Shown: one piece after another, positions 2,412 through 18,635 of the stretch
How the letters are laid out: each line of letters opens with the position of its first letter
How positions within the stretch are numbered: the stretch's first letter is position 1
Assembly: GCA_035389045.1 (NCBI GenBank)
Contig: DAOORA010000050.1
Location: 1 to 34,714 of the forward strand
DNA: 34,714 nt
Source: Bacteroidales bacterium
Lineage (GTDB): Bacteria; Bacteroidota; Bacteroidia; Bacteroidales; CAIWKO01
Direction of reading: 5' to 3'
The notes under the pieces: generated by a model
Databases searched by the model: none
Told to the model about the DNA's origin: nothing
Seen by the model: the letters and a program-made list of their open reading frames with translations, nothing else
Translations under genes and position numbers: made by a program

Positions 2412-2476
2412 GGTATACTATTTTAATTTATTGTTTTTTATGCTGTTACAAGAAAACCGCGGATTGTTAACAATGT

Positions 2477-2498
2477 AAAAACCCGACACGGTCAGGTT
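2477..2498 (-). terminator. Candidate intrinsic terminator after the 344-aa gene
   Basis: Minus strand reads AACCTGAC-CGT-GTCGGG-TTTTT: a stem with one U-G pair followed by a U-run, about 80 nt after the stop at 2579. Confidence 0.45.
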
Positions 2499-2578
2499 CG
2501 CCGGATGATGTAATAGCCCGCCTTATTAAACCAAGAGATTATTATATGATTTATCAGTGAATACAATGGTGTTTTGCT

Positions 2579-3613
2579 TTAGTTTTTAACAAGTTTATAT
2601 GTGTAGTTTCTTTTATTCATTCTGATAGAACAAACAATTTGAATATAATATATTCCTTTTTCTAACCCATGTAAATGCTTTATACTGAAATGTTCGTCCT
2701 GTTTTTGAACATTCATCTTTCTGGTAAGCCGGCCATCGGCAGCAAAGAGATTTATTTCTTCAACAAAGGCTGAGCTTGAAATTTCTATTGTAATACCATC
2801 AATAAAAGGGTTGGGATATATACCAGCATTCATTACTTCAAAATCATTTCCGGACAATACCGTTACATGTAACATGACAGCATCGGACACTATGGATACA
2901 CAGGTATTGCTTAGCATGCATCTGAAAGAGGCTCCGTCTAATGCCAGGGAGGGTTGAAGCACATGAAGAGTATCCTCTTTGCCACCCTGAAATATTTGGT
3001 TGTCCTGGATGTTTCCCCATCCGCTTCCCTGATTGATCTGCCATTGAATGCTATCATAATCTGAAGCCCCGACAGAAAAAAAACCATTTTGGGTTGTATT
3101 TAAGGTTAGTGGCAGCGGCTGCATATTGATCACAGGGTTTTCCGGAACCGCCAGACTTCCATTGGAATAATTAATATTGATCGGGTCACCTGCCGAATCA
3201 GCGATTTCGCAATTGGTCATAAAGTTTACCGGAATATTTCCTCCTGAAATCACTCTAAAATTCAGTACAGCAAAAAGTCCTGCATTAAAATTTACTCCTT
3301 CTCCGGCATTATCAATCCATGAAATCCCGATTTTTCCTATCCGTGGGCCATTCACGGGCACACGGATATCGTTGTACATGGTGCCCGAAGCAAGCGGGTT
3401 GATATTGCTTAGAAAAACGGAATCAACCATGCTGGTGTCGTATCCGATAAATAATGTAATTGCACCTATATTGGGTATAGCCGACATATTTACAGGAATG
3501 TTAGCAATAGTACCGATGCACGATTGCACATGGCCAATCTGCATGGTTTGCGTATGCACCCGCCCGCACATCAATATCAGTAAACAAAAAGCGACAGCCT
3601 TACAGAGTTTCAT
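2579..3613 (-). CDS. Cohesin-like + Ig-like + T9SS type A sorting domain protein (344 aa); candidate anchor or adaptor
   Basis: Signal peptide ...GRVHT|Q. Cohesin-like IPVNMSAIPNIGAITLFIGYDTS...ISW...LFAVLNF...CEIADSAGDPININYSNGSL. Ig PVINMQP...IQWQ...FRC. CTD IYPNPF...LFAADGR...GLEKGIYYIQI...KLVKN. Confidence 0.85.
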   Translation of the reverse strand: MKLCKAVAFCLLILMCGRVHTQTMQIGHVQSCIGTIANIPVNMSAIPNIGAITLFIGYDTSMVDSVFLSNINPLASGTMYNDIRVPVNGPRIGKIGISWIDNAGEGVNFNAGLFAVLNFRVISGGNIPVNFMTNCEIADSAGDPININYSNGSLAVPENPVINMQPLPLTLNTTQNGFFSVGASDYDSIQWQINQGSGWGNIQDNQIFQGGKEDTLHVLQPSLALDGASFRCMLSNTCVSIVSDAVMLHVTVLSGNDFEVMNAGIYPNPFIDGITIEISSSAFVEEINLFAADGRLTRKMNVQKQDEHFSIKHLHGLEKGIYYIQIVCSIRMNKRNYTYKLVKN

Positions 3614-3622
3614 AGTATCGCA

Positions 3623-6600
3623 TTAATTACCGGGGAAAATGATCATGGAGCGTGTTGCATTGAAATTCCTGGTAACGCCTTCAACAGTGATTTTGTAATA
3701 ATAAGCCCCGCTTTTTAATCCCGAACCGTCGAAACGGATGGTGTATTTCCCTGCTTTTTGCACCGTGGATACCAGGGTGCCGACTTCCTGTCCCAGCACA
3801 TCGTAAGCTTTAAGCAATACATTGCCTTCTTCGGGCAATACATATCCGATTTCCGTTTCTCCGCGGAAAGGATTCGGATGATTCTGGCTCAGTTCAAAAT
3901 CCAAATCCGGAGTAATACGGATATCGGGATAACTCAAGCGGACGCCATGCATAATATCTGCTGTTTTATCGGCAAATTCACTTGCAGCATCGAGGCTGAG
4001 CGCGATATTGTCTTTTTCGGAGGCGTTTTCACTGACTTTCAGATGCAGGACACATAACACATCATTGCTGTTAAATACCGCAGGAGACAGGCTATCCCAG
4101 GCAATGACGACTTTTCCTTTCCTGGCGCTGTATAATAATCCTGGCAGGGAGGACGAAATACCCTCAACATCTGCGAACTTCTCAGGATAATCAATGATCA
4201 GAGTAACAGCAGCGGGTTGTATCATATTTTCACATAGTATCGGAAGATCAATGTTTTGATCCCTGTTTGTAAATATCTCTCCTTTTTCGAAAAGCTCAAT
4301 CCCCGAATTTTTAAGCATTACCGGAGTAAACGAACCGTTCACATCTCCGGCACACAATGTTTTTATGTCATGAGTAATATTGGTGTCAGCCAAAACAATA
4401 GTATCTTTCAGGAATACAATGTCTTTGATCTGGAAATTGTCGATCTGGCCGACAACGCGTCTTCTGATCAGCAAGGCATCGGTGCTTGAAATGGTATTTG
4501 AGTGATTAACATCAGCCGCCGTGTCCTGTAGCCTGTTCAATACGGACAATCCTATGCTGGCCCTGCGCACCAATAAGGCATCTGTTGAATTGACGCCTCC
4601 CCACGGAAAAACGGCGGACGCATCAATTAAATATGTTTTCTGTGGATTCAGTCCCAGGTCGTATGCTCCGTCCACGCCGGCGGTTACGGAATCTAAATTT
4701 ACCCCTTCGGTGTTTCTCAGGTATACGGTGGCATTGCTTATCGGAGTGCCAGCCAGATTCTGATAGGTGACAGACCCTGTTATTGACTTGGGATATCCCA
4801 GTATAACTTCCGCCTCAGGCGTATTTTTCATGGGTTCGGTATTACCGACATTGTCTTTGGCAATAGAGAAAAAACCATACTCCGAATTTTCTATCCCTGA
4901 AAGATGAGCAGTGTCCCCGAAGATATATTCTCCGAATAAATTATATGGCCCGGCATCCCTGGAATAATAGAGCATATATTTTTGTATTCCGCAGCCGCCC
5001 GGATCATCCTGTCCGCTGAATATGATATCAAGCGAACTCGGAGAGGTTTGTATAAGGGTATCTATCGAACTGGCCGGCGCCTTAGCATCTATTTTATTAA
5101 ACCATTCATTCGTATTAATAGATTCATTAATATCAAAAACAATTTTGGCCTGAGCCAGCACGGAATCGCCTGTGATATCAGATGATCTGGGTTTAATGGT
5201 AAAAGTGACAAATCCCTCGCCAACATGGGTGTTGGTATCGTTGACCGGCAGAAATCCGGTTTGCGGATCATTAGGAGGAAGGCCTGTTGCAGGGTCAATA
5301 GACCGGAATACCCAGAACGCTTCATGGTTGACCACGTCGAGTCCGGCGACAACATCAACATAAACATTTAACGAATCTCTGACATCGAGTCTTGTGGTAT
5401 AATGTGCGGTATTGGCCGGTACAGAGAAATTAAAATCGCCAAAACCAAAATTTCCGATTTGCAATGAATTCCAGTTGATCTTGCTGCTGAGCGGGACATT
5501 AATTTTCACTTCCTGTGCCGGAGCCGTAGCAAAAACAGGATCGTTTTCAAACCAAACGGTATAGGACAGCTGGTCATTGACGGATACCCACTGTGGTTCT
5601 GCATATCCCGCTGGTCCGGCAATAATATTCGGATCCTGAGGGCAATCGATCGGAATGAACAACACAAACACACACTTGCTGGCATTGCAGCCATTGGAGT
5701 CTGTCACCGAACAGCAATACAATCCTGATCCTGAAACGGTGAGTGTACCTCCCGGCCAGCTGTAAGTATAGGGAGGTGTTCCCCCGGAAGCTGTTGCGGA
5801 TAATGTCGTTGAGGTTGGGTCACCATTACAGTAACGGATAACGGTATTTCCTCCACTGACCGATACGGTTAATTTCGCGGGCTCTCCGATGGTGACGTTT
5901 GTTCTTCCGTGGCAGCCGTTTGCGTCTGTCGCAGTGACCGTATAGGTTCCGGCTGCCAAACCACTGGCTGTAGCGCCCCCGCTGCCATTCGACCATGTAT
6001 AGGTGTATGGCTCGTCACCGCCAGAGGCAGAAGCTGTCGCAGTGCCATCACTGCCTCCGTGACAGGAGGGATTTTTCGATGATGTTATAGTTACCGGGAA
6101 TGCATTATAGGACATTTCCACCTCCACGGAGCCGGTTCCTTTGCAACCGGCAGAATCAGTGACCGTAACACTGTAAGTTCCCTGGGACAAATCTGTAATG
6201 GTTGATGTCGTCCCGCCATTTGACCACTCATACGTATAGGGGGTGCTGCCTCCGCTGGCTGTCACCGTTGCGGTTCCATCCGCCGTATTATCACAGCTTT
6301 CGGGGGTGGATGCCATAGTAGTACCTAATGTGGACATGGAAAGCTCAATAGTAACCGTTTCCGTTCCCTGGCAACCGTTGGCGTCCACAACGGTAACCGT
6401 ATAATCTCCTTCGGCCAGATTGCTGATGCCCGGCGTGTTTTCGCCGGTCGACCACGTATACGTATAAGGAGGTGTCCCGTTGCTGACATTTGTTACCTGC
6501 GCCGTTCCATCCGAAGCCCCGGTACAGGTTACATCGGTATGGTCAACCTCGATCTGGCCAAACCCGTTAAAAAATAAAAACTGGAGTATGAATAATATTC

Positions 6601-6655
6601 CGGCAAACTTGATTTTTGCAGAATTACCCTGTTGAGAATTTAAATATCTTTTCAT
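3623..6655 (-). CDS. T9SS substrate (1010 aa): SprB-like repeats, 'DPN' (DUF7619-like) domain, Fn3-like, carboxypeptidase-regulatory-like, dockerin, cohesin-like, T9SS CTD
   Basis: Signal peptide ...NGFG|Q. Three to four C..DGTA..GGTPPYTY.WS..L..G.YTVTV.DANGC repeats. QDPNIIAGPAGY...YTVWFENDP..ATAPAQ...SIDPATGLPP.DP..GFLP.N...GEGFV...IVFDINESI. Dockerin GGVNSTDALLVRR / AADVNHSNTISSTDALLIRR. CTD LSQNHPNPF...YDVLGQEV...LKSGAYYY. Confidence 0.9.
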   Translation of the reverse strand: MKRYLNSQQGNSAKIKFAGILFILQFLFFNGFGQIEVDHTDVTCTGASDGTAQVTNVSNGTPPYTYTWSTGENTPGISNLAEGDYTVTVVDANGCQGTETVTIELSMSTLGTTMASTPESCDNTADGTATVTASGGSTPYTYEWSNGGTTSTITDLSQGTYSVTVTDSAGCKGTGSVEVEMSYNAFPVTITSSKNPSCHGGSDGTATASASGGDEPYTYTWSNGSGGATASGLAAGTYTVTATDANGCHGRTNVTIGEPAKLTVSVSGGNTVIRYCNGDPTSTTLSATASGGTPPYTYSWPGGTLTVSGSGLYCCSVTDSNGCNASKCVFVLFIPIDCPQDPNIIAGPAGYAEPQWVSVNDQLSYTVWFENDPVFATAPAQEVKINVPLSSKINWNSLQIGNFGFGDFNFSVPANTAHYTTRLDVRDSLNVYVDVVAGLDVVNHEAFWVFRSIDPATGLPPNDPQTGFLPVNDTNTHVGEGFVTFTIKPRSSDITGDSVLAQAKIVFDINESINTNEWFNKIDAKAPASSIDTLIQTSPSSLDIIFSGQDDPGGCGIQKYMLYYSRDAGPYNLFGEYIFGDTAHLSGIENSEYGFFSIAKDNVGNTEPMKNTPEAEVILGYPKSITGSVTYQNLAGTPISNATVYLRNTEGVNLDSVTAGVDGAYDLGLNPQKTYLIDASAVFPWGGVNSTDALLVRRASIGLSVLNRLQDTAADVNHSNTISSTDALLIRRRVVGQIDNFQIKDIVFLKDTIVLADTNITHDIKTLCAGDVNGSFTPVMLKNSGIELFEKGEIFTNRDQNIDLPILCENMIQPAAVTLIIDYPEKFADVEGISSSLPGLLYSARKGKVVIAWDSLSPAVFNSNDVLCVLHLKVSENASEKDNIALSLDAASEFADKTADIMHGVRLSYPDIRITPDLDFELSQNHPNPFRGETEIGYVLPEEGNVLLKAYDVLGQEVGTLVSTVQKAGKYTIRFDGSGLKSGAYYYKITVEGVTRNFNATRSMIIFPGN
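4448..4603 (-). other. Dockerin-like domain in the 1010-aa protein
   Basis: Duplicated helix motif (STDALLVRR / STDALLIRR). The second copy has a Ca-binding loop, DVNHSNTISSTD. Confidence 0.8.
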
Positions 6656-6712
6656 GTTTTTGTGTATTTTAAATACTTTGTAATACTGAATTATGCGGAT
6701 ATTTATATGATA

Positions 6713-7420
6713 TTAGTTTTTTCTTAATTTTTTCAGTGCCGGTTTTACCATGCGTTTGAACAGTTTTGCCGACTCCTCTTTACTCATGCAGCTTCTGTCC
6801 GGAATGACCGGTTTGCGTTGTTCCGTCATTTTAGACAGGGTGAAGGCCAATATTTCCTTTTTTTGCATGTCCTGTGCACTTTTTGCTTTTTGGATTATCG
6901 TCTTGATTATTTCTTTATCCCGCATCAGGATCAGTGATTTCGCACAAAACTCAGCCACAGAGAGATTGTTGCTCTCTAAGCTGTCGAGTAACACAGGAAC
7001 GGACAGATGCCACAGCCGCTGTATTTGCCCGTTGGCTTCTTCGTAGGTATTAGGGTTTTTTATTCCCGACATATAGATGTAGCGGGTGACTTTTTCATCA
7101 ATGATCTTCTTATCTGCTGCCGTCAGCATTACCTCGCCTCTTAATTCCCGATCCCCTAATTCTTTGGCAAGCTTCTTCAGTTCATTTTTATTTCTTGACG
7201 AATCCAATATACTGATTATTTCGGACACGGTTTTTTCCGATAAATATTTTGCATCATCATAAATTCCGGAACTGTTTTCGCCAGGACGGGTGTTATGGTT
7301 TTGAGCCCCGGAAAGGGTATCTGATACGAGATTCTCATTTTTATTCTGCCCGTATAACCCGCTGCATAACAAAATAAAAACAATAAAAAACCCTTTTAAA
7401 ATGTAATTACTTTTTTTCAT
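6713..7420 (-). CDS. Exported hypothetical protein (235 aa), alpha-helical/HEAT-like; orphan immunity-like candidate
   Basis: Signal peptide MKKSNYILKGFFIVFILLCSGLYG|Q. HEAT-like segment SVPVLLDSLESNNLSVAEFCAKSLILMRDKEII. No recognisable family. Confidence 0.75.
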   Translation of the reverse strand: MKKSNYILKGFFIVFILLCSGLYGQNKNENLVSDTLSGAQNHNTRPGENSSGIYDDAKYLSEKTVSEIISILDSSRNKNELKKLAKELGDRELRGEVMLTAADKKIIDEKVTRYIYMSGIKNPNTYEEANGQIQRLWHLSVPVLLDSLESNNLSVAEFCAKSLILMRDKEIIKTIIQKAKSAQDMQKKEILAFTLSKMTEQRKPVIPDRSCMSKEESAKLFKRMVKPALKKLRKN

Positions 7421-7425
7421 TGTGA

Positions 7426-7432
7426 CACCTCC
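7426..7432 (-). promoter_or_regulatory. Shine-Dalgarno-like GGAGGTG before the 235-aa gene
   Basis: Minus strand reads GGAGGTG-TCACA-ATG, a 5-nt spacer. Confidence 0.5.
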
Positions 7433-7475
7433 AAATTATTAAACATAATACCATAAATAATAATATCTTTTTTTG

Positions 7476-8546
7476 TTATTTCTCCAAATGTTTTTTAGTG
7501 ACCATAAAAGTTTCATTTAAAAAATCAACGCCTTGCTGTTCCCTGATGGCCCCCGCCAACGCTTCATTTTCATATAAGTTTTGCACATCCCTGACCAGTC
7601 TGTCTGTGAGTGTTCTGTCCATAGCGGTTTCCGGCAGGGAAAGTTGCCCGTTCATAATATAACAGGCATTATAGAGGAAAAAATATTGTTTTGCCAACAC
7701 GGTTGTTTGTTCCGATAATCCCAGTAAAATTGGGATATCCAGGTCTCCGTAAATTTCTTTCATAAATGCAATATTCCTGTTGAATATTATCTGATTGCTT
7801 TTTATAATAATATCCTGTAAATCTTTTTGCACGATTTTTTCCCAAACGGTTTGCCAGGCATTCCTTTGATCATCCTCAACATAAATGTCATGTTTAAGAA
7901 TGGCATCAGCGATTATTTCCTGTTCATTTTTTGTCAGGATAATATTGGGCATGTTTCCGATTTGTTTCAGACAAACAATAATACTATCGCTTTTATACTT
8001 TTCTGATAATGAAACGCTTATCATTTCCCGGATTCGGATTAAATAGCTGTTGTTTTGCATGCTGAAAATGTTCCTGAATAAACTCCGCACCAATGTACAG
8101 GCCGCATTTTCGTCCAGCTGGATAACAGTCCAAACAGCCCGGTGTGGCATGAATAAGGGACTGTTAAGCGGGCGCCGGACCGACATGTCAATCGCAGAAA
8201 AATTCTTAATAAAACTTTTCTCTTCCAGCATGGTTTGTGCAAAATTTCCAAGATAAGTGATTACTTCAGTTTTGTAAGTGGAATCCCAGCTGATATAGGC
8301 CATACGGGTCAAAAGAAACCGTGCATCAGAGGGGTTCTCCATTTTACTGAAGGTGTCCGTGCTTTGCAGATTCAGGAAGTTATCAAGCCTGACTTTCATT
8401 TCTTTCCAGTTCTCTGAGGTCAGGTTATCATATTCTTTGGGATAATAGTTATATGGCCGTTCTTTCTGTCCGTAAATATCGGTCACAGGTGCAATAACAA
8501 ATAATGTAACAATGAAAAATAAAGCTTTATAGATTTTTGTTTTCAT
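7476..8546 (-). CDS. Exported hypothetical protein (356 aa), probably alpha-helical; candidate cognate partner/immunity protein of the upstream HExxH protein
   Basis: Signal peptide ...APVTDIYG|Q. Starts 12 nt after the stop of the 529-aa gene. No visible similarity to the 338-aa or 235-aa proteins. Confidence 0.8.
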   Translation of the reverse strand: MKTKIYKALFFIVTLFVIAPVTDIYGQKERPYNYYPKEYDNLTSENWKEMKVRLDNFLNLQSTDTFSKMENPSDARFLLTRMAYISWDSTYKTEVITYLGNFAQTMLEEKSFIKNFSAIDMSVRRPLNSPLFMPHRAVWTVIQLDENAACTLVRSLFRNIFSMQNNSYLIRIREMISVSLSEKYKSDSIIVCLKQIGNMPNIILTKNEQEIIADAILKHDIYVEDDQRNAWQTVWEKIVQKDLQDIIIKSNQIIFNRNIAFMKEIYGDLDIPILLGLSEQTTVLAKQYFFLYNACYIMNGQLSLPETAMDRTLTDRLVRDVQNLYENEALAGAIREQQGVDFLNETFMVTKKHLEK

Positions 8547-8558
8547 GATTTGTACTGT

Positions 8559-10148
8559 TTACCATTTGGGGTTTTCAGGATCCTTTGACCAATCTTTACT
8601 GGGAAAAGTTGCTTTTACTCCCGGGCTTATTTCTATTATTCTGCATCTGACTTCCTGGTCGGCATAACCGGTTCCGGCATAAAGCGCATAGTTAAAAGTA
8701 TTATGATTCGTAGAATCAGACACATGAAAATAGGTTCTTGACGGAGCTGCTTCTTCGCCGTTGGGCAAGCCATCGGTATCGTCGTGATTGGGCCCGATAG
8801 TACCAAAGTTTCCCCAGGCATTATAACAATCCCGGTGATGTAATTCGTGTGTCATCGATTCAGCAACGCACTTCAGGTGTTTTCCTGTTCCTGTCATGTT
8901 AAAAGCATTTCCCGACATATCATTGAGGGTTTCTGTAGGCCCGTTCACATCACAGGCCAGGGGGCCAAGTTGCAAACCATCGGTTGGCGACCAGGCTCCG
9001 TAATCCAGGGTCTGATCGTAAGTGCAAATATCCATATCCTCGACCACCTCGCCATCTTTCCAGAAAACAAACCAGCAGGGAGGGTTTGCGGTGGAGGGTG
9101 CACCTCCGTTCACGTTTAAATCCGGGTCGAAAAAGATTTTAACTTTATTGGCAGGGGTCATATCTGTTGATGAAAAGGTATGACTGTTCCCTTCTCCGTC
9201 CTGGCAGGAAACCCTTATCGTTCCATAAGCATCACCAAAATCACTGTTTGACGCAGAACTTAATTCGCTGTAAGGTATTCTCAAATCGGTGCCTGTTTTT
9301 GACGTACCTCCGGTAGTGCCCCAGTTATCCCAAATCCCATCCGGGGCTTCCCACTGCCAATCGGAGCAGTCGGAAGATGCTATGGCGCTGTACGAAATAA
9401 ACTCGCCCACCACCACTTTCCAGGCTTTTCCGGTTGTATTATCCTTCACATAATCAATCCATAATTCATATACATCTAAATTGATCGTTGGGGATGTAGC
9501 GCTGCAATCACCGTTTTCCGCCTCAACGTATATTGGTGTTGTGAATTTATGATCGGCATCACCATCAGGGACCTGATCGGCATCAGCCGTGTAATACTCA
9601 ATTCTGTCCCACGACCAGACTTCTTCATTCCATTCATTACCGGCTGCATCTTTGAAATAAAATGTAATGTTTATCGGGTCCGTCAGGCTGACAGGAAAAT
9701 CATCAGATACTTCTGCTGTAAAGGTAACAGAACGACCTTCCATGCACTGGGTGATATTATCTTCCACCGTCAATGTTACTGATGCATCAACCACCGTGAC
9801 GGTCACCTGGTCCTGATCCTTAAAACTGAAATCGGGGCCGACAACAGTAAGGGTATATGTGGTAGTCACTGCCGGTGTGGCCGTAGGATGTAAAATGTGA
9901 GGATCATTAAGCCCGGCCTGAGGACTCCAGGTATAACAATAATCCGGGTTTGCATCGCCCCCGCCGAGAATCACGCTTCCGGCGCCACAAATTGTCGAAT
10001 CCTGTCCGGCATCTGCATTTTGTGAAGACACTTCCGGAACAGAAAAAAGAACTACCAATGAAAGCAATAAAAAGTATTTTGATTTAACAAAGCTCATCTT
10101 TATAATAATTTTCAAAATTTCTTTACCGTTGTATTGACTTATTTCCAT
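8559..10148 (-). CDS. Exported PKD/Ig-like protein with a C-terminal HExxH zincin-like domain, paralog B (likely start at 10097, MSFVKSK...)
   Basis: Signal peptide ...PEVSS|Q. ADAGQDSTIC..WSP..GL.DP....P.A.P..TTTYTLTV (PKD-like). ESMT-HELHH at 8835-8849. DTDGLPNGEE acidic loop. Distal YADQE. Ends DWSKDPENPKW with no T9SS CTD. Confidence 0.85.
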   Translation of the reverse strand: MEISQYNGKEILKIIIKMSFVKSKYFLLLSLVVLFSVPEVSSQNADAGQDSTICGAGSVILGGGDANPDYCYTWSPQAGLNDPHILHPTATPAVTTTYTLTVVGPDFSFKDQDQVTVTVVDASVTLTVEDNITQCMEGRSVTFTAEVSDDFPVSLTDPINITFYFKDAAGNEWNEEVWSWDRIEYYTADADQVPDGDADHKFTTPIYVEAENGDCSATSPTINLDVYELWIDYVKDNTTGKAWKVVVGEFISYSAIASSDCSDWQWEAPDGIWDNWGTTGGTSKTGTDLRIPYSELSSASNSDFGDAYGTIRVSCQDGEGNSHTFSSTDMTPANKVKIFFDPDLNVNGGAPSTANPPCWFVFWKDGEVVEDMDICTYDQTLDYGAWSPTDGLQLGPLACDVNGPTETLNDMSGNAFNMTGTGKHLKCVAESMTHELHHRDCYNAWGNFGTIGPNHDDTDGLPNGEEAAPSRTYFHVSDSTNHNTFNYALYAGTGYADQEVRCRIIEISPGVKATFPSKDWSKDPENPKW

Positions 10149-10196
10149 TATCCTATTTTTTCAAGTACATAGTTTTTTTAATTTCATTTTATATTT

Positions 10197-11213
10197 TTAC
10201 CCGGGGGCGCTCCTGTTTTTACAACTTGAAATAATTTTTACCAGGTTTTTAAGCATATATTTTTTTATTTCTTCTAACCCCTGATTTTTAATTTGTTCCC
10301 AGTCATCGCCACAAACGTACGCGAGCAATTGTTTCAGGTCATCTTCTTTTTTAAATGTATTATTGAAAAGGATGTTAATATTCAAAGACCTGAGGCTGCT
10401 GCCAAGACTTATCCCCGTTTTTTCTGAAGGGCGGACCAGATATTCTTTCAACAACAGGTCAAATGCATTGGGCGTTCCGGCTTCTCCGAGAATACCAATT
10501 ACAGGCGCTGGTATCACAAGAGAGTCCTTAGCGCTTTTTGATAATGAGTCTACAATATATTCAGCTATTGCATATTCGTCTTTAACAATAGCGGCTCTGT
10601 ATGGATTGTCTTTTCCGAAAGAATTGTTGTGTGCCCCATGTTTTATATAACTGCTTATCAGGTCGTTGTAGTAAAAGAAACGTTTTTTGCGTATGATGTC
10701 CGACCGGTAATAGATCATACGGATCATCGAATCAATTTCGGGGTATGATTTACTTGTCAGATAGTTATTAAATTCAGGAATGTTGAATTTTTCAAGGTAG
10801 GTGAGGGAACCGACCAGTTCCGGTTTGTTTTCACTCTGACTCCGAACCGAACTGACTGAAAATTTTGTTATTTCTTTGTCCTCCGGGAATCCTGCCAGAA
10901 AATGTACAGCCCTGTACACATAATCTGCTGCATCAATTTTAATAATGTTCTGGAATACCTGGTATTTGTTTTTCAGATCGAAGGCCGGGGGGAGATTTCC
11001 TTTGAGCAGCATTAATTCCCATAAGGTGTTTTCCCTGATAACCCTGTCATTACTATAAAGATTCGGGATTTTCTCATTAAACTGAGCAACAGAGTCCTGT
11101 TTTTGCCATTGGCAAAACACCTGTGTTGACAGCATGGTCAGAACAAGAAAAACAATAAAATTTTTCATGAAATAAAATGCAGTAAAATTACTATTCAGAA
11201 AATGCTTTACCAT
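10197..11213 (-). CDS. Exported hypothetical protein, helical/HEAT-like (likely start at 11168, MKNFIVF...); candidate cognate partner/immunity protein
   Basis: Signal peptide MKNFIVFLVLTMLSTQVFC|Q. HEAT-like VIGILGEAGTPNAFDLLLKEY and LYSNDRVIRENTLWEL. Directly follows the 513-aa HExxH gene. Confidence 0.8.
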   Translation of the reverse strand: MVKHFLNSNFTAFYFMKNFIVFLVLTMLSTQVFCQWQKQDSVAQFNEKIPNLYSNDRVIRENTLWELMLLKGNLPPAFDLKNKYQVFQNIIKIDAADYVYRAVHFLAGFPEDKEITKFSVSSVRSQSENKPELVGSLTYLEKFNIPEFNNYLTSKSYPEIDSMIRMIYYRSDIIRKKRFFYYNDLISSYIKHGAHNNSFGKDNPYRAAIVKDEYAIAEYIVDSLSKSAKDSLVIPAPVIGILGEAGTPNAFDLLLKEYLVRPSEKTGISLGSSLRSLNINILFNNTFKKEDDLKQLLAYVCGDDWEQIKNQGLEEIKKYMLKNLVKIISSCKNRSAPG

Positions 11214-12748
11214 TGTTTTCCTCCTTTACTCCAGTCTGATGCAGGAACACCCAAGGCCCCGCGTGCAAAAGTCATCACACCGTATTCGTTGTCGCCGTAT
11301 TCAGCATAGGTAGGATGCTTTATCACGCGCAGGTTATAAGTGTCTTTATTTCCTATGGTGCAACCTAATCCGGCCTCAAGAGGGTCGGGGAGGCCATCAC
11401 CGATAAATACGGTTCCCGCAGGATTTCCCGCTGTGTCCGTATCAGCTGTTCCGCCAATTATTTGTAGTGCGTACACATTATGCTGCATCTCATGCCTGAC
11501 CACTTCTGTACAACAATCAATGCCCTGTGCGCCTCCGAATTCAATTCCGTTAATCATCAGTCCGCCGGGGTAATGTGTGCCGCCGGCAAGCCGGCATACG
11601 GCCAGATTCTGAACATTCCACCACAAAAATGTCCCTATAGAAGACCACCCGTAGGAATTGTCGTTATCGTACTGAAACAAATTCAGATTGGGAACAGCCC
11701 CCTCTTTCCAGAATAAATACCAGCATGGCGGATCATCATTGGCTGTTGCTCCTCCGCTTCTGCTCAATTCAGGTGTAAAAAAGACCGATGCTTTTTGCGG
11801 AGGATTCAGATCTGTTGATGAACAGGTGCAATTATTGCCATCTCCGTCAATACAGGTAACGGTTACAGTTCCGTAATTCATTCCGAAATAGCTGTTGTTG
11901 GCGGAGCTTAAATCAGAATAAGGGATTACCATGCCGTTGCCATTTTTTGCATTCCCTCCGGCCGGGTTCCATGTGTCGGGAAAGCCGTCGGGCATATCCC
12001 ATTCCCAGTCATGGCAATCAGAAGAAGCTATCGCACTGTATTCAATGGCGTCGCCCACAACAACTTTCCAGTCTTTTTTGGTGGCATTATCCCGAACATA
12101 TTCTATCCATAACTCATATACATCAATATTAAGAGTTTCAGAGGTGGCGCTGCAATTATCGTTTTCCGCATCAACAAATATTGGTGTTGTAAATTTATGA
12201 TCGGCATCGCCGTCGGGCACCTGCGCGGCAACCACCGTGCTGTATTCGGTTCTGTCCCACGACCAGTCCTCCTCCGTCCAGTCGGTACCATTGGCGTCCT
12301 TGTAATGGAATGTGAATAATAATTGATTGAAAAGGCCTGCAGGGAAGGCGTCTGAAGCTTCTGCCGTAAAGGTTACTGAGCGCCCCTCCATGCACTCGGT
12401 GATATTGTTTTCTACGGTTAATGTTACTTCGGCTTCCTCAACAGTAACCGTCACCTGATCCTCATCCCTGAAACTGAAATCCGGGCCAACCACTGTAAGG
12501 ACATAAGTAGTAGTTACTGTCGGGCTTGCCACAGGATGTAATATATGAGGATCACTAAGTCCGGTCTGCGGACTCCAGCTATAGCAATAATCCGGGTCTT
12601 CATCACCACCGCCGATAACAACACTGCCTTCACCACAGATGGTCGTATCAGGCCCTGCATCAGCCTGAGAAAACGCCTTCGGCATAAATAACATGCACGC
12701 TAACGTCAGCAGTAAGATGATTTTGATTTTATTATACTTGATTTTCAT
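11207..12748 (-). CDS. Exported PKD/Ig-like protein with a C-terminal HExxH zincin-like domain, paralog A (513 aa)
   Basis: Signal peptide ...PKAFS|Q. N-terminal ~320 aa are colinear with the 529-aa protein. GIDCCTEVVR-HEMQH at 11480-11494. GDGLPDPLE loop. Distal YGDNE. Ends DWSKGGKQW with no T9SS CTD. Confidence 0.85.
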   Translation of the reverse strand: MKIKYNKIKIILLLTLACMLFMPKAFSQADAGPDTTICGEGSVVIGGGDEDPDYCYSWSPQTGLSDPHILHPVASPTVTTTYVLTVVGPDFSFRDEDQVTVTVEEAEVTLTVENNITECMEGRSVTFTAEASDAFPAGLFNQLLFTFHYKDANGTDWTEEDWSWDRTEYSTVVAAQVPDGDADHKFTTPIFVDAENDNCSATSETLNIDVYELWIEYVRDNATKKDWKVVVGDAIEYSAIASSDCHDWEWDMPDGFPDTWNPAGGNAKNGNGMVIPYSDLSSANNSYFGMNYGTVTVTCIDGDGNNCTCSSTDLNPPQKASVFFTPELSRSGGATANDDPPCWYLFWKEGAVPNLNLFQYDNDNSYGWSSIGTFLWWNVQNLAVCRLAGGTHYPGGLMINGIEFGGAQGIDCCTEVVRHEMQHNVYALQIIGGTADTDTAGNPAGTVFIGDGLPDPLEAGLGCTIGNKDTYNLRVIKHPTYAEYGDNEYGVMTFARGALGVPASDWSKGGKQW

Positions 12749-12785
12749 AGTATTAATTGTTACATTTCATTGATCAGAGAATAAT

Positions 12786-15700
12786 TTAATATTCGATAAT
12801 ATATCCAAGTCCGGCAATGGTTTTTGTGTAAATAGTTATTGTTCCTGAAACGCCCGGCCTCAGAATTCCAGAAGGCCCGTTTTCCTCTTCGAGCGGCACA
12901 ACCAGTTCATGGTACATGTTGGTCAGCTGGTCAACGCTCAATGCTATGGGAGATATAGAAAGACTTTTCACTTTCACTTCAGGATTGATAATGTTGGTAT
13001 TGCCAAGATTAGCATACTCAATGGTAAAGCTGGTAATCCTGTTCGATCTTGCCGAGGGCGGGGAAATGATATATACTCCAAGATTGGGCGCCGCTCCTGA
13101 AACAACTTCAAATCCCTCCTGGAGCGAAACAGTATCTCCGTTGAGTTTTTCCAAAACAAGGTCAAAAACACCTGGTTGTATGCCTGTCAGATCAAATGTT
13201 GCATATATTCTTGAATAGTCTACATATATAATATCCTCTGCTGTGATGGTGATTGTTCCGTTTTCAAGACGCGCATCCAGGTATGGGTCAAATTTTGATC
13301 CGATAATCTCCAGGGTGACCTGTCCGGTATTCCCTCCGGTAGCAGGGTTCGAGGACAGTATCTGGAAGGTGAGAATATCAGCTCTGACGTCAACGAGCTG
13401 GCTGTTTCCTGCCAGGGTGTTTCCATACAGCAACATATAGTAACTGCCATCCATCACCGAGGGCACAATAATCTTCTGATTCCCCTGATAGGGATTATCG
13501 CTTGAATAATCATATATGATCCGGGTAGGCATATCATCATATTTGAGGTACATTTCGTTGGACCCGCTGACCGAGTCGGCTTTAAGGGTTGTGAGCATGG
13601 TCTCGTCATTCTGCGAATACGCTATCGGGATGCGGAAATACAGGTTCTCAAAGTCATTCAGCGTATCGCCGAGCGTAACGCCAATGGGTAATTCACGCAC
13701 GTTGGCAAACACCGGTTCATTAGTTTCGGAAATATTATTAACTTCATTATTTTCATATATTCCGTTTAGCACATCCGTTCTGATGATCACGTAATAATAA
13801 CCCAGGTGAAGCCCGTTTGCTCTGGCTGTAAGGCTTCGGGGAACTTCTGCACCCGCCCCGAGATTTATGCCTGACTGATACGATCCGAATAATTCATCAT
13901 CTATATCCCAGAAAGGATCTTCAGAAAAATAAACCATATCTTTTACGGTTCCAATGGCAGGATTCTGACCGATATTTTTCAGCGTCCATTGTATGGTTGT
14001 CGTTTTTCCGACGGTCACCGAATCCGGTGGAACGATCTCGACAACGAAAAGGTCAGCAGGAGGCGGCTGAGAAATCACTGTAAATGCATATTTTGTGTTG
14101 TTGTTTTCGTCTGATTCAAATATTCCATTGCCACCGTCGGTCATAATAATAATGATGAAGTTCCCTGTTACATTGTTGGGCAAAGTAACCGGCAGCGTAT
14201 CCGAATATGTTTCGTTAATGCCGATAATCCCTGTTCTGGTTTTTGACCCGATCATTACGTCGCCTGTATTAATTACAAAATCCGACGATAAATATATTTT
14301 ATCTGTCCAGGTACTTCCCGAAATACTGCCCACGCCCTGATTTTTGACAGTCCAGATAGCATTGAACGACACGCCGGTAACGGCCTGTGTCGGCACGGAA
14401 AATGATGTCACCACGAGGTCGGGGGGCGGGGTAAGGGTAATATGAGTGGTTAGCATGGACGGTCCGTTCTTTTTCCTTGCCCCGCTGTTGTTTAATAAAT
14501 TGCCATCATTATTATCCTGTTCATAATCGGCTACCACCAGCAGGTAATAATTCCCGCTTATGCCGTTGGGTATATTGAATGACTGGCTGCAGCTGTAACT
14601 TTCATCAAAGTCCAGTATTCCGTGGTGATTTCGTTTTCCGAGGTACAGGTCTGTATTTTGGTTCCATATGCTGTCGGTGGATAAATAAACGGCATCATAC
14701 CAGGTGATCACGGAGCCGGTAACCGACAGATTTTTTACTGTCCATTGCACCGTTACAGCTTGTCCGGAATTCACGGTATCGGGGTTTACAATATCCAGCG
14801 CCACAAGATCAACAGGTGGAAGCGGCTGGATATACAACGCATTGCTTCTTAAAACATTATTATACTCTGCTGTGTATTCAAAAATGGAATCTTCTGCATC
14901 TGCAAAAACATAAATATAGTGATTTCCTCCAGCAAGACCAGCCGGAAGGTTAATATCTGATACAATGGAATACGTTGAATCTGCAGCCACGGAAAACGAT
15001 GCCGCTAATGAACGCAGATGACTAGACGAACCGGGATCCCAGATAGGAATTGACGAAATAAATACCTTGTCGATCCACGTTTTGCCCGTGATATTTTTTG
15101 CACCTGCATTTTTCACAATAAAATTCAGCGGGATATTGTTTCCTGCCTCTGCAGAATCAGGTATCTGGATATTCATAACCTGCAAATCGGCCCATGTTCC
15201 TATATTCAGATGTATCATAAAATCGGCAATATTATTATTTTCATTAATGGCTTCATCAATGCCGTCACCGTAGTCGGTGTAAACATGGACATAATAATTT
15301 CCCTGAAGGCCTTCAGGAATTTCAACGGACAATTGATTGGGCATGGTATCACCCGGATGCAGTGTGCCGTTGCATACTTTTTCGCCCAGAAACACATTTC
15401 CTCCCTGGTAATACGATGGAAAATGTGACAGATAAATTCGGTCTTTCCATGTTTTGTTCCACATGGTCAGTGTTCCGGTATTTTCTGTTACCCATTGAAC
15501 GTTGATGGTTTCCCCTGAATTTGCGGAAGAAGGAACGACCAGGCTGCTGACAATAAGATCCGGCCTTTTAATCTGGATGGTTGATGCGCTGTGTTCCAGA
15601 TTATTTGCTTCAGAATAGTTTTCGAATATCTGGTCCAGATAATCGGCATGAATAAAAATATAATATGTTCCGGGAACCGCAGAGTCGGGCAAAGTGACAA

Positions 15701-18635
15701 ACACTTGTTTGATGATACTGTCTCCCGGATCAATGTATGCGTCATAGTTCAGTGAGGCGATCTGAAAAACAGAATCGGGATCATAAACCGGGCTATGGGT
15801 CATCAAGATACGGTCTGTCCAGTTACGGTTATAAACGATGCCTGTCCCCACATTTTTAATGGACCATTTGATATCAATGGCCTGAGTGCCGCTGTCCGCA
15901 GGGGGAATTAAAATAGTACTTACGGCCAGGTCGGGTTTGGCAAGCCAGATACTATCCGTACTTCGTAAAAGATTATTGTTTTCGTTGCCATTTTCATATA
16001 TATTATTGTTCCAATCCGAATAAATGTACAAGTAATAGGCGCCCGATAAATTGTCCGGCAGAGATATTGATTTGGTGCGGTTCAGGCTTTCACCGGGCAG
16101 TAAAGAAGTTGAGGTATAACTCTGTTCAGTTACCAGGATCATAGAATCAGGGTGATAAACCGGAGATTTTGATATCATGATCCGGTCTTTCCAGGTTTTA
16201 TTCAATATTTTTCCATGTCCGTTGTTCAATACCGACCACTGGAGGTTGAACGGCAGGCTGGTATTATTTACCAGGGGGCAGACCATATTGGAAATGATAA
16301 GGTCTGGATTTACAATCATTACCGGGTTGTCTGTTCTGAGCACGTTATTATTTTCATACTCAAACTCAAAAACATTGTTGTTCAAATCTGTCTTAACATA
16401 TACATAATAAGGCCCTGTCAGGTTTTGGGAAAAATTGATCTGTTTAGTGGCAGAATAGGTGCTGTCGGGAGGCAGGCTGCTGACACTTATTGATTTAGGT
16501 CCCAGATTTAAAGCCTGGCCGATGTCGAAATAAGGGAGGTCAGATAAATAAACGCCATCGGTCCAGTTGAACACCGTGGGCGGTGTAGCTCCCTGATTCT
16601 GCACAGTCCAGCCGACCATAAAAACATCCTGGTTGCTTATGGTGTCCGGCATATTGATATGAGTAACTACAAGATCTGCGGGCGGTGTGAGGTACACAAT
16701 TACGGAATCGCTTCTTGTGGTATTATTGTTTTCATATACATATTCGAATACATTATTGGCAACGTCGGTTATCACGTAAAAATAATAGGTGCCGTAAATA
16801 TTGGACGGGATGGTCACCGCATGGGTAGTGGTATACGAACTGTCCGGGTTCAGAAGCCCGGTATGAGTGAATGTTCCAAGGTTCACGGCAGTATTGATGT
16901 TCAGCGCCGTATCTGATGAAATGTAAACCCTGTCGCTCCAGTTGCTGGTATTGGTGTTTCCATCTCCATAGTTCTTTACCGTCCAGGAAATAGTAACCGT
17001 CTGTCCGGAAAACATATCGGCAGGCGTAATGATAGAGGTGACTTTCAGATCGGGTTCCGGTGGTATGGGGAAAATGACTTCTTTATAGAAAAAATTATCA
17101 TGATATGGCGGCTGGTCGGAGATTTCTTTAACCACATTGACATAACTTCCGCCATGGGTATATGCCCGGTAATAGGGTGGAGGATTGTAAGGCAGGGGAG
17201 GACCTGTCTGTGGCCAGTTCATAAAAAGAGCATCCATTGCATCGGTTATTACGAAAAGGTAATAAGAACCGATCAGATTTGCAGGTATTTGTATCTGTTG
17301 GGTCTGAACATAGTTTTCGCCGGGATCGAGGTAGCTGACATTAGGATATTGTCCGAGCAGAATATCTTCCGCTTCACCAATCCGGACTTCAATATCAGGC
17401 GAAAGCCACACACGGTCCATCCATATATTTCCTGAGGGCGTAGGCCAGTTACCATCATTCTGTACGGTCCAGCTTATCGTCATCGGCTGGCCTGCAATGG
17501 GTTGCGAATTTGTTATTCCTGTAACATGGAGTTCGGGAAGCCCGGTGATAGAGAATACCTGAATTGGTCCCGGTGTCTGGGCACAGGGATTCTTTGCAAC
17601 GATCCTCCATTTGCAGGTATCTCCGTATGTAAACAAACTGCTTCCTGTTAACTGATAATTGATCTGTGTGATATTCGAAACAGTTGGTGTTGTGGGCTGT
17701 GACACGTTATATTTCCAGATATACAGGTCGTATAACGAGGCATTAGCCGACGGACTCCATGAAAACAGTATCGGGTATGAAATATCAAAAGAACTGTCCG
17801 CCGGCAGCATGCTGGTGACAGCCGAAGGGGGTGTGTTTGAATATACGGTAATGGCCTTAGAGGCAAACGCAGAATCGATGCCGTCGCTCACTTTAACCGA
17901 ATATACAGTGTTTACAGTAGGTTTAACCCATACTGCTGACAGGGTAGCAGAAAAACCAACAGGGTCGGACGACCAGTTAAACGTATAACCTCCCTGTCCA
18001 CCCGATGCCTGTGCTGTCAACAGAACAGAATCACCCATGCAGATACCATCCTTGTTTGAAGTGATGTTAACCGATACGGACGGCGATACCAGCCCGCCGC
18101 GGTATACCACGCCTGGTGACAATATATTGCCGGCAGTGTCTGTGATTTCGCAGCTGGTCAGGAACGTTACCGGGCTGGCTCCGCTGTTGTATTTAAACCT
18201 GAGATCCAGTATCTTGCCGGTCCCGATGGTCACCCCGTCGATATCAAACCATGAAACAGCAATGGTGTTGCTGTTTAGTTTATTGATCAACGGGTATCCG
18301 GGTATCAGCAAAGAATGGATATTTAATGCCCTTCCATAAGACAGCGTTGTACTGTTAAACTGAATATATAATGTTATGGATCCGATCTTGGGGAGATCAT
18401 GGGCTCTGACAGCTATGTCAATACTGTCACCCTGATGGGCTATCACGGTGTCTGCTGTCAGCATGGGGGTCTGGGCAAACACAGGTTTCATCAGGACAAG
18501 GATAAAAACAACCAGGGAAACACTCAGATTCATAATGGTCTTATGAAATATTCTGCTGCCTGTTGTGATAGCGGGCTTATCGGTTCTTATTATTTTCATG
18601 ATTTTTTTATTTTTAAAATCAACATTAATTTTCAT
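12786..18635 (-). CDS. Cohesin + 10x CARDB scaffold-like protein (up to 1949 aa) with PPC-like and IPT/TIG-like domains and no T9SS CTD
   Basis: Signal peptide ...MKPVFA|Q. The ATG at 18635 overlaps the upstream TAA (TAATG); alternative starts at 18599 and 18533. Cohesin-like domain ~18088-18470. Ten (P/A)DL.V....P...W.VKN.G....W.D.VYLS...G.YY..V..D..N...E....NN units. Ends ...GILRPGVSGTITIYTKTIAGLGYIIEY*. Confidence 0.9.
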   Translation of the reverse strand: MKINVDFKNKKIMKIIRTDKPAITTGSRIFHKTIMNLSVSLVVFILVLMKPVFAQTPMLTADTVIAHQGDSIDIAVRAHDLPKIGSITLYIQFNSTTLSYGRALNIHSLLIPGYPLINKLNSNTIAVSWFDIDGVTIGTGKILDLRFKYNSGASPVTFLTSCEITDTAGNILSPGVVYRGGLVSPSVSVNITSNKDGICMGDSVLLTAQASGGQGGYTFNWSSDPVGFSATLSAVWVKPTVNTVYSVKVSDGIDSAFASKAITVYSNTPPSAVTSMLPADSSFDISYPILFSWSPSANASLYDLYIWKYNVSQPTTPTVSNITQINYQLTGSSLFTYGDTCKWRIVAKNPCAQTPGPIQVFSITGLPELHVTGITNSQPIAGQPMTISWTVQNDGNWPTPSGNIWMDRVWLSPDIEVRIGEAEDILLGQYPNVSYLDPGENYVQTQQIQIPANLIGSYYLFVITDAMDALFMNWPQTGPPLPYNPPPYYRAYTHGGSYVNVVKEISDQPPYHDNFFYKEVIFPIPPEPDLKVTSIITPADMFSGQTVTISWTVKNYGDGNTNTSNWSDRVYISSDTALNINTAVNLGTFTHTGLLNPDSSYTTTHAVTIPSNIYGTYYFYVITDVANNVFEYVYENNNTTRSDSVIVYLTPPADLVVTHINMPDTISNQDVFMVGWTVQNQGATPPTVFNWTDGVYLSDLPYFDIGQALNLGPKSISVSSLPPDSTYSATKQINFSQNLTGPYYVYVKTDLNNNVFEFEYENNNVLRTDNPVMIVNPDLIISNMVCPLVNNTSLPFNLQWSVLNNGHGKILNKTWKDRIMISKSPVYHPDSMILVTEQSYTSTSLLPGESLNRTKSISLPDNLSGAYYLYIYSDWNNNIYENGNENNNLLRSTDSIWLAKPDLAVSTILIPPADSGTQAIDIKWSIKNVGTGIVYNRNWTDRILMTHSPVYDPDSVFQIASLNYDAYIDPGDSIIKQVFVTLPDSAVPGTYYIFIHADYLDQIFENYSEANNLEHSASTIQIKRPDLIVSSLVVPSSANSGETINVQWVTENTGTLTMWNKTWKDRIYLSHFPSYYQGGNVFLGEKVCNGTLHPGDTMPNQLSVEIPEGLQGNYYVHVYTDYGDGIDEAINENNNIADFMIHLNIGTWADLQVMNIQIPDSAEAGNNIPLNFIVKNAGAKNITGKTWIDKVFISSIPIWDPGSSSHLRSLAASFSVAADSTYSIVSDINLPAGLAGGNHYIYVFADAEDSIFEYTAEYNNVLRSNALYIQPLPPVDLVALDIVNPDTVNSGQAVTVQWTVKNLSVTGSVITWYDAVYLSTDSIWNQNTDLYLGKRNHHGILDFDESYSCSQSFNIPNGISGNYYLLVVADYEQDNNDGNLLNNSGARKKNGPSMLTTHITLTPPPDLVVTSFSVPTQAVTGVSFNAIWTVKNQGVGSISGSTWTDKIYLSSDFVINTGDVMIGSKTRTGIIGINETYSDTLPVTLPNNVTGNFIIIIMTDGGNGIFESDENNNTKYAFTVISQPPPADLFVVEIVPPDSVTVGKTTTIQWTLKNIGQNPAIGTVKDMVYFSEDPFWDIDDELFGSYQSGINLGAGAEVPRSLTARANGLHLGYYYVIIRTDVLNGIYENNEVNNISETNEPVFANVRELPIGVTLGDTLNDFENLYFRIPIAYSQNDETMLTTLKADSVSGSNEMYLKYDDMPTRIIYDYSSDNPYQGNQKIIVPSVMDGSYYMLLYGNTLAGNSQLVDVRADILTFQILSSNPATGGNTGQVTLEIIGSKFDPYLDARLENGTITITAEDIIYVDYSRIYATFDLTGIQPGVFDLVLEKLNGDTVSLQEGFEVVSGAAPNLGVYIISPPSARSNRITSFTIEYANLGNTNIINPEVKVKSLSISPIALSVDQLTNMYHELVVPLEEENGPSGILRPGVSGTITIYTKTIAGLGYIIEY
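13720..17540 (-). repeat. Ten diverged CARDB-type domain repeats (~125 aa each)
   Basis: Unit starts: LPELHV, EPDLKV, PADLVV, NPDLII, KPDLAV, RPDLIV, WADLQV, PVDLVA, PPDLVV, PADLFV. Confidence 0.85.

Follow-up and report, generated by a model that had tools for sequence, protein, structure and literature searches.

Two genes of a Bacteroidales surface-protein array as the probable front and back of one giant architecture, cut at a variable junction

What is a giant exported protein without a sorting domain doing in an array of type IX secretion system (T9SS) cargo genes, and does it belong together with the sorting-domain-bearing protein encoded behind five intervening genes? The question is raised by a stretch of 34,714 nucleotides from a Bacteroidales bacterium (assembly GCA_035389045.1, contig DAOORA010000050.1, positions 1 to 34,714 of the forward strand; the whole stretch is called the window below), in which the 1949-aa protein A and the 1010-aa protein B are separated by genes for two HExxH proteins (H513 and H529) and three further proteins (I338, I356 and I235). 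The first-pass annotation had proposed that a single carrier was split here into two independently exported halves, with a variable payload encoded as free-standing genes in the gap. Our analysis makes it probable that A and B correspond to the front and the back of one widespread giant secreted surface-protein architecture, cut at a variable junction. The split-carrier idea is thereby supported as an architectural and evolutionary statement, and a payload role of the HExxH genes for the A/B pair, as predicted from sequence, is unproven. The genes and modules on which the argument rests are:

12786..18635, minus strand: A, open reading frame (ORF) of 1949 aa
12786..13955, minus strand: A-tail, the last 389 aa of A, conserved module preceding the junction, with 49 homologues
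3623..6655, minus strand: B, ORF of 1010 aa
4706..5683, minus strand: B-mid (aa 325-650), conserved module after the junction, comprising DPN, a large DUF7619 sandwich and an Fn3-like sandwich

A consists of a signal peptide, a cohesin, about a dozen CARDB-type sandwiches, a PPC-like and a TIG-like domain, and a final sandwich with the motif GILRPG. It had been described as ending soon after EYANLGNTN and as lacking a sorting domain, which holds on both counts: EYANLGNTN begins at aa 1873 and GILRPG at aa 1923, the stop falls 21 residues past GILRPG, and neither Por_Secre_tail nor TIGR04183 was found in A (Pfam and NCBIfam, E<=0.01), leaving room for a divergent or type B signal. The domain labels proposed for this half fared unequally. 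CARDB (PF07705) was recovered with 222 bits over 7 stretches, the sole whole-protein Pfam match above cut-off; PPC and TIG were not called by Pfam in the window's own A-tail, and appeared only in homologues, PPC within the aligned tail region of P0030, P0036, P0039 and P0041, and TIG (PF01833) listed for P0043, whose matches fall on tail residues ~200-348. B comprises a signal peptide, four SprB repeats (123 bits in Pfam), DUF7619 (PF24595, 59.9 bits vs a cut-off of 27, in two stretches), an Fn3-like domain, CarboxypepD_reg, a dockerin, a cohesin-like domain and a T9SS sorting domain. This agrees, from Pfam and the structural model, with the DPN, Fn3-like, dockerin and sorting domains that had been read from the sequence, DPN (aa 341-343) lying exactly at nt 5627-5635 as proposed. 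Across an alignment of 46 B-mid sequences, D17, P18 and N19 (the DPN motif), FEN and several Asp, Asn and Gly residues are invariant, and the B-mid model (pLDDT 90.6) displays a large sandwich followed by an Fn3-like sandwich, the second containing the 'DNVGN.E' stretch.

The two modules do occur in one polypeptide. With the last 390 aa of A as query, 49 proteins were retrieved; 32 of them close with the A-tail (20 residues or less from the C-terminus), and 11 have, always downstream in the same chain and 52-1123 aa away, a match to B aa 331-640. The reverse search, B aa 330-640 against proteins of 1769-5000 aa, yielded 120 proteins, of which 59 carry the distal tail upstream of B-mid at a gap of 171-1319 aa. 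The other 61 gave no tail match by BLAST at 1e-5, many of them being of B type, i.e. a signal peptide, then an RHS, M4, reprolysin-like or other head, then B-mid. The statement of the first-pass annotation that CARDB...GILRPG and DPN modules often share a polypeptide around a variable segment was thus borne out: in both directions BLAST matched the same single proteins, with gaps of 52-1319 residues overall and with RHS, CarboxypepD_reg and other sequences in between.

Furthermore, the two modules are linked in the genome wherever both could be followed. Scanning one genome per species with a seed alignment of 15 A-family proteins gave 80 loci, of which 11 without a tail match at 1e-6 and 14 with less than 5 kb downstream were left out. 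B-mid follows the tail on the same strand in all 55 remaining loci, at a distance of 563-6573 nt (median 3226 nt), fused in one ORF in 20 and split into separate ORFs in 35, a recurrence that goes beyond chance. The fused loci are labelled Chitinophagaceae, Cytophagaceae, Hymenobacteraceae and Saprospiraceae, and length-limited searches found the fused order also in records labelled Planctomycetota, Acidobacteria, Cyanobacteria and Thermoanaerobaculia. The genome of the window itself holds the split arrangement in three paralogous loci (the window and the contigs C57 and C7), with A paralogues at 64-65 % identity and B-like paralogues of 1564 and 1613 aa that are 66-73 % identical to B in the part they have in common; of the four DUF7619 loci in this genome, three sit after an A-like gene. 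Hence, the architecture is one chain in many bacteria, and is cut right after the last sandwich here and in 35 other Bacteroidota loci.

In the split state A terminates at a fixed place. The C-terminus of the A family is conserved, 13-25 aa past (G/N)ILRPG, with the stop position kept in 15 aligned members, and the gene after A begins in the split loci with a basic, then hydrophobic, signal-like N-terminus. As A ends at a conserved site past GILRPG and the next gene looks signal-like, the break is one at a domain boundary and not a sequencing accident; the split is a conserved state of a whole clade, not a peculiarity of the window. A sorting domain was absent from all 7 split A relatives scanned (E<=1e-3) and present at the end of 4 of the 5 fused Bacteroidota proteins scanned. 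The trivial explanation, in which a recent frameshift, nonsense mutation or assembly error broke one gene, might be invited by a contig derived from a metagenome-assembled genome (MAG) and by very long, repetitive genes. We hold it to be extremely improbable: the stop position and C-terminus are conserved both in the aligned members and in the 35 split loci, the following gene always has its own start along with the signal-like N-terminus, and the three paralogues agree.

Two loci stand apart by their labels. L097 and L102 have a typical Bacteroidota build, yet their records are labelled Eggerthellaceae and Janthinobacterium lividum, which may reflect mis-binning or transfer; L102 is without a recognisable sorting domain, L097 is long-branched on the B-mid tree, and L102 together with L069 has an atypical residue make-up.

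What lies between the two modules differs from lineage to lineage. Pfam was run on 39 of the 89 listed junction sequences of split loci, and among the 11 fused chains the junction holds DUF6531 and RHS repeats in 5 and CarboxypepD_reg repeats in 2. The 20 fused Bacteroidota loci show a helical stretch and a beta region there; in L044, the only junction read completely, the Cys-containing linker before DPN is preceded by a long Gly/Pro run, which is missing in the two shortest fused junctions (L069 and L102). The split junctions scanned contain SprB repeats alone, an M4 thermolysin fused to B, DUF6531 and RHS fused to B, or other large ORFs. Thus, the variable junction is the place where lineages differ in enzyme and toxin modules.

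The genome itself offers a comparison. On C57 and C7 the B-like gene lies within ~30 nt of the A-like gene and its product begins with ~590-640 aa of a thermolysin-type peptidase, with an FTP-like stretch in front of an M4-type HEITH...E motif; in the counterpart at L042, FTP, Peptidase_M4 and Peptidase_M4_C are all called by Pfam. From its aa 36 onward, the window's B aligns to aa 589 and 637 of these paralogues, i.e. where their M4 peptidase ends, and in the window the five genes occupy the place of that peptidase. A profile built from the 20 fused junction segments found no match at E<=1 in window, paralogue or database proteins, and an HExxH motif was seen neither in any fused junction nor in the 35 junction proteins checked from split loci.

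Among the closest relatives (L023-L041 and L100) the junction holds a conserved pair of ~395-aa and ~450-aa proteins, the former with a first Ig domain like that of H513 and a Gly/Cys-rich end, the latter ending in 5-7 thrombospondin type 3 (TSP_3) calcium-binding repeats. A MAG of the Chitinophagaceae (L090:14330-19034) carries a free-standing RHS protein of 1432 aa between an A-type and a minimal B-type gene; past its canonical core end ...DPVNYVDPLG, the protein has a C-terminal domain of ~210 aa that includes a glycine-zipper-like stretch. A 135-aa gene, whose product has no signal peptide, also lies between A and B. At L063:14805-20600 and some ten similar loci, a full DUF6531 and RHS shell (core end ...VDVWGL) sits within the B-type protein, succeeded by a ~250-aa segment with a Gly-rich hydrophobic stretch and then by DUF7619 and the sorting domain. 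In these L063-type proteins the RHS shell is internal to a T9SS cargo.

These inserts bear on a second alternative, namely that A and B are mere neighbours, independent surface proteins of a conserved operon whose fused forms are secondary and whose junction is an insertion-tolerant intergenic spot. The locus is indeed one long array in which surface-protein genes share a strand, the B-mid tree groups the fused rows, and B-type proteins are complete cargo on their own, the 61 long B-mid proteins without a detected tail included. However, A and B are paired in every one of the 55 loci and in the three paralogous loci of one genome, and fused chains of this order are also met under the labels of other phyla. 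Moreover, RHS and regulatory-like repeats lie precisely between the modules in fused chains, so that intergenic insertion cannot explain them. We therefore give this explanation little credence.

For the proposed architecture, this suggests a front in which a variable head, a CARDB stalk, PPC-like and TIG-like domains and the last 'GILRPG' sandwich would lead into the junction, and a back in which a Pro/Gly/Cys-rich linker, the 'DPN' DUF7619 sandwich and an Fn3-like domain would be followed by a variable tail and the T9SS sorting domain. T9SS cargo presumably keeps its sorting domain at the extreme C-terminus. Since the sorting domain is required at this end, modules that elsewhere are C-terminal would be placed before the constant DUF7619/Fn3 stalk, and since stalk and sorting end follow the head, B-type proteins would be self-sufficient cargo. 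Fission would thus leave B as a complete cargo and A as a protein exported without an outer-membrane sorting domain.

The five genes that fill the junction of the window are, in the order in which they follow A:

11207..12748, minus strand: H513, ORF of 513 aa
10197..11213, minus strand: I338, ORF of 338 aa
8559..10148, minus strand: H529, ORF of 529 aa
7476..8546, minus strand: I356, ORF of 356 aa
6713..7420, minus strand: I235, ORF of 235 aa

The HExxH proteins noticed in this gap are there as described. H513 carries a signal peptide, Ig-like domains and a C-terminal HExxH domain (HEMQH at nt 11480-11494) ending in DWSKGGKQW, and H529 is its paralogue with HELHH at nt 8835-8849. The two are 51 % identical overall, being ~65 % alike over the first ~355 aa and much diverged in the HExxH end. 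A search of 1.8 billion representatives recovered about twenty proteins that share the whole H513 body, and showed the N-terminal Ig-like domain to be a common repeat of giant proteins. All 21 of the aligned relatives keep H419, E420, H423 and the closing DWS...W, and in the H513 model (pLDDT 89.3) the motif lies on a long helix (409-431) after a small sheet; an HExxH motif on a helix is a hallmark of zincins. Domains of this type also terminate longer proteins of 1218 and 1674 aa. The HExxH domain found no family or solved relative in Pfam (E<=10), NCBIfam or a PDB sequence-profile search; fold searches with the whole H513 model (Foldseek, VIA-align) were filled by the N-terminal Ig-like domains, and aa 325-513 gave nothing usable in the Atlas. 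For the Ig-like front of the model (aa 27-325), the top Foldseek rows were fragments of GhpA, the 'grappling hook' of the predatory Bacteroidota Aureispira, at E ~1e-10 to 1e-11 and low TM-scores, a likeness which is one of shared repeat type and not evidence of common function.

Each HExxH gene is followed by a gene for an exported partner. I338, helical and with a signal recognised by eye, starts at an ATG within the last H513 codons (7-nt overlap); the junction reads CAATGGTAA, with AGGAGG upstream, and a HEAT-like assignment of the protein is a weak lead from one source. I356, likewise exported by eye, begins 12 nt past H529 and is unrelated to I338 in sequence (BLASTP, E = 0.11), without a family in Pfam. 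I235 is a third exported helical protein (signal by eye), whose relatives are 31-42 % identical.

Scanning metagenomes for this module with a 7-row alignment of closer relatives disclosed 15 other loci. An I338-like gene directly follows the H513-like gene in 8 of them and an I235-like gene lies downstream in 8, these partners being 22-42 % identical across distant loci; I356 has no relative in any of the 15, and an A or B module was found in none. The HExxH genes and their partners therefore form an autonomous module that occurs elsewhere without A or B. At the boundary of the H and I338-like genes, AAAGGAGGnAArCAATGGTAA or a near variant recurs in the window and in 6 of the 9 loci inspected, and since this DNA is conserved between a Bacteroidales genome and distant high-GC loci, protein and translational-coupling constraints coincide there. 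The sequence at 11207-11240 (minus strand) shares with L107, L109, L111, L113, L114 and L115 the AGGAGG box and a next-gene ATG (MV...) inside the codons of the terminal ...DWSKGGKQW and its stop. An AGGAGG Shine-Dalgarno-like box is unusual for Bacteroidota, and it hints at transfer of the module. We regard it as probable that an enzyme with I338-type and I235-type partners was transferred, with a second enzyme-partner pair inserted. We prefer to see the five-gene insert as a lodger within a permissive junction and not as proven cargo of A and B, and the module may possibly encode a secreted peptidase with inhibitor or immunity proteins. G+C over the insert (window 6001-12000) is 0.40-0.42, compared with 0.43-0.47 in the flanks, along with a stronger negative AT skew; both would suit either a foreign origin or the composition of the helical proteins.

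Part of the payload claim therefore stands, as the junction content does vary, and part does not, as the HExxH module shares none of its 15 other loci with A or B and is absent from the other 55 junctions, where only the N-terminal ~100-145 aa (Ig-like) of the H513 body recur, in the ~395-aa proteins.

A more far-reaching explanation would see the locus as one of effector display, a T9SS-linked antagonism in which B or a scaffold carries or holds A, the RHS toxins and the HExxH proteins, and in which I338, I356 and I235 protect the producer. Several observations fit. Many loci have RHS modules in the junction, and in one of them a classical RHS protein is accompanied by a small gene downstream; H513 and H529 display the layout of polymorphic toxins, i.e. 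a conserved front, a diverged HExxH end and mutually unrelated genes directly downstream; H-type domains end longer proteins too; and the partners are exported and translationally coupled to the HExxH genes. There is also a precedent in the TANFOR toxins, large Bacteroidota proteins which are reported to lack a sorting domain and to lie among SprB-, Fn3- and PKD-rich T9SS cargo genes, and whose variable toxin module belongs to the chain itself or to the next gene, T9SS export being proposed there rather than shown (PMC7073777). The window's A is comparable in lacking a sorting domain amid T9SS cargo genes; it differs in that the variable module lies between two conserved modules instead of at the C-terminus, and in that the back half is itself a T9SS cargo. 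A TANFOR domain was not reported for the window proteins in the Pfam and NCBIfam scans, for which the inclusion of a TANFOR model in the libraries was not verified. Nevertheless, toxicity, immunity and binding are all predicted properties here, conservation of the I338-like and I235-like partners across distant loci is unlike the hypervariable pattern of immunity genes, the M4 peptidases and the SprB-only junctions are not toxins, and none of the other HExxH loci has A or B. Judged by its predicted parts, the trio of H, I338-like and I235-like proteins would fit a fixed enzyme-partner set at least as well as a toxin-immunity system. On balance we consider effector display doubtful.

Returning to A and B as the two ends of one cut architecture, how would A reach the cell surface? 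Hydrophobic N-termini ending in AQ, GQ or SQ were recognised by eye in A, B, H513, H529, I338, I356 and I235. B and the 344-aa protein encoded after it pass the cut-offs for a T9SS type A sorting domain, and no sorting domain was found in H513 and H529 (Pfam, NCBIfam, E<=0.01; a divergent or type B signal would be compatible with this). The notion of two independently exported halves was accordingly half right: the carrier is split and both parts have signal-like N-termini, but only B bears a sorting domain. Pfam further places cohesins on A and on the 344-aa protein, and dockerins on B and on the 4660-aa protein encoded just before A; the matches in A and B are:

18114..18458, minus strand: cohesin of A (aa 60-174), PF00963, 28.5 bits vs a cut-off of 24.1 (scan of the first 212 residues)
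4454..4600, minus strand: dockerin of B (aa 686-734), PF00404/Dockerin_1, 25.8 to 29.9 bits vs a cut-off of 22.9
3677..3877, minus strand: T9SS type A sorting domain of B (aa 927-993), PF18962 with 33.3 bits (cut-off 27) and TIGR04183 with 27.4 bits (cut-off 23)

P0020, of the same family as A, also carries PF00963. The set looks like a small T9SS-anchored scaffold, in which the N-terminal cohesin of A would probably bind the dockerin of either B or the 4660-aa protein and so keep A at the surface; as judged from the domain calls, pairing of the A cohesin with the B dockerin would be the best guess for how A reaches or keeps the surface. Co-folding of the last 200 aa of A with B-mid (15- and 46-row alignments) scored 0.31, 0.18 and 0.14 against a mark of 0.32, was run without controls and gives no verdict.

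Several points weigh against this picture, some touching the A/B architecture and others the role of the insert or the route of A. The loci counted include near-duplicates (e.g. L032/L033, L047/L054/L060 and L109/L110), and the seed came from a Bacteroidales alignment, so the proportions express linkage and not natural frequencies. The B-mid tree is a quick, unrooted one, in which the 16 fused rows lie amid split rows and can be explained by as few as 1-2 changes; within Bacteroidota, fusion is as possible as fission, and on such a tree we claim no direction of change. Not one of the other 55 junctions has the five-gene insert, and the HExxH body was missing from all 400 other Bacteroidota genomes sampled (E<=1e-10), so 'payload' may be the wrong word for it, and the fold of the HExxH domain was matched to no peptidase in the above sequence and fold searches. 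The signal peptides were judged by eye. Contact of A with B and exit of A from the periplasm are only predicted and thus unproven. Finally, cohesin and dockerin were found only in the Bacteroidales clade: the two RHS-type Chitinophagaceae split pairs scanned on both sides (L063 and L090) are without either, so that this pairing is not the general way of rejoining the halves.

With regard to known systems, giant T9SS surface proteins with shuffled domains are familiar already; what is new is the split and the variable internal junction, on which literature searches, mostly of titles and abstracts, found no paper. RHS/YD shells, as in polymorphic toxins and teneurins, are normally terminal toxin carriers. 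The junctions of relatives likewise hold a DUF6531 plug and an RHS shell with a core-end motif (RHS_repeat, DUF6531, TEN_YD-shell), whereas fused and B-type forms have the DUF7619/Fn3 stalk and sorting domain behind the shell in place of a terminal toxin; in the window proteins themselves the domain scans found no RHS repeats, these being confined to relatives' junctions. Cellulosomes assemble by cohesin-dockerin pairing, and the window proteins carry both domains; here, however, the host is a member of the Bacteroidales, anchoring would be through the T9SS, glycoside hydrolases are not involved and binding is predicted. Secreted peptidases of the M4 (thermolysin) family carry C-terminal PPC domains, and the C57 and C7 paralogues of B begin with the FTP-like and HEITH...E elements of that family, whereas the window's B has no peptidase and its HExxH proteins match neither M4 nor another peptidase family.

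The stalk itself is reminiscent of fibrillar adhesin-like T9SS cargo, with which it shares long beta-sandwich chains, DUF7619 and a C-terminal Por_Secre_tail. The closest solved folds to B-mid are streptococcal AgI/II C-domains, Gram-positive pilins and Fn3 tandems, at low TM-scores, the AgI/II and pilin domains being isopeptide-bearing ones. In one preprint, DUF7619 is named with CLIPPER and CLIPPER_2 among isopeptide stalk domains of DUF11/CLIPPER type (bioRxiv 10.1101/2025.04.25.650565). In B-mid, in contrast, none of the 46 sequences' Lys positions is invariant or at least 90 % conserved, D, N and E residues being invariant, and so we do not claim an isopeptide; the split chain and the variable junction before DUF7619 are further differences.

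For hundreds of giant unannotated surface-protein genes, this architecture would offer a reading rule: the lineage-specific business end is to be sought between the GILRPG and the DPN/DUF7619 sandwiches. The chief interest lies in a front half whose loss of the sorting domain is conserved, and in RHS and peptidase modules occupying an internal slot. A split front half conserved in many genomes without the only known outer-membrane sorting signal either stays inside or is carried out in trans, and RHS shells inside T9SS cargo suggest how secretion by a C-terminal signal accommodates effectors of C-terminal type. More speculatively, constant front and sorting-domain-bearing back could bracket an exchangeable effector slot for RHS toxins and for M4 or HExxH peptidases, in an undescribed modular system of T9SS bacteria and others that, once split, exports or displays sorting-domain-less proteins (A and free-standing slot proteins) in trans, a possibility to which we attach only tentative weight. 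If it were true, proteins would hitch-hike through the T9SS via the B half or a cohesin-dockerin scaffold, in a new class of polymorphic effector locus.

The remaining cargo genes complete an array of ten genes, all on the minus strand, with operon-like packing (gaps of -7 to 167 nt):

18635..32617, minus strand: 4660-aa cargo protein with three GEVED, four Laminin_G_3, seven DUF1573, a Reelin subrepeat-B, a MAM-like domain and a dockerin
2579..3613, minus strand: 344-aa protein with an N-terminal cohesin (30 bits) and Por_Secre_tail (30.3 bits), both from Pfam
3..2411, minus strand: 803-aa protein, open-ended, with six PKD_6 repeats and a start that is cohesin-like by eye only

The stop of the 4660-aa protein overlaps the start of A by 1 nt, and its sorting-domain match in Pfam is sub-threshold (23.4 bits vs a cut-off of 27). 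Its C-terminal ~380 aa resemble the C-terminal tail of B, being 30-31 % identical to the last ~400 aa of the B paralogues, and the tail of the paralogous giant on C57 is 32 % identical to B aa 626-1006. Paralogues also lie upstream of the other two A genes (4037 aa on C57, 1243 and 1325 aa on C7), and the order from the 4660-aa protein to A recurs in close relatives. The 344-aa gene begins 9 nt past B and is likewise present after B in close relatives. Scanning 2400-19000 for promoters and terminators gave no enrichment (46 promoter-like sites vs 39.6±5.5 expected, 16 terminator-like vs 15.2±4.4), with a promoter scan that does not model Bacteroidota promoters. Upstream of the array, a 325-aa protein on the plus strand (33141-34118) matches the Fibrobacter succinogenes major paralogous domain with 133.6 bits.

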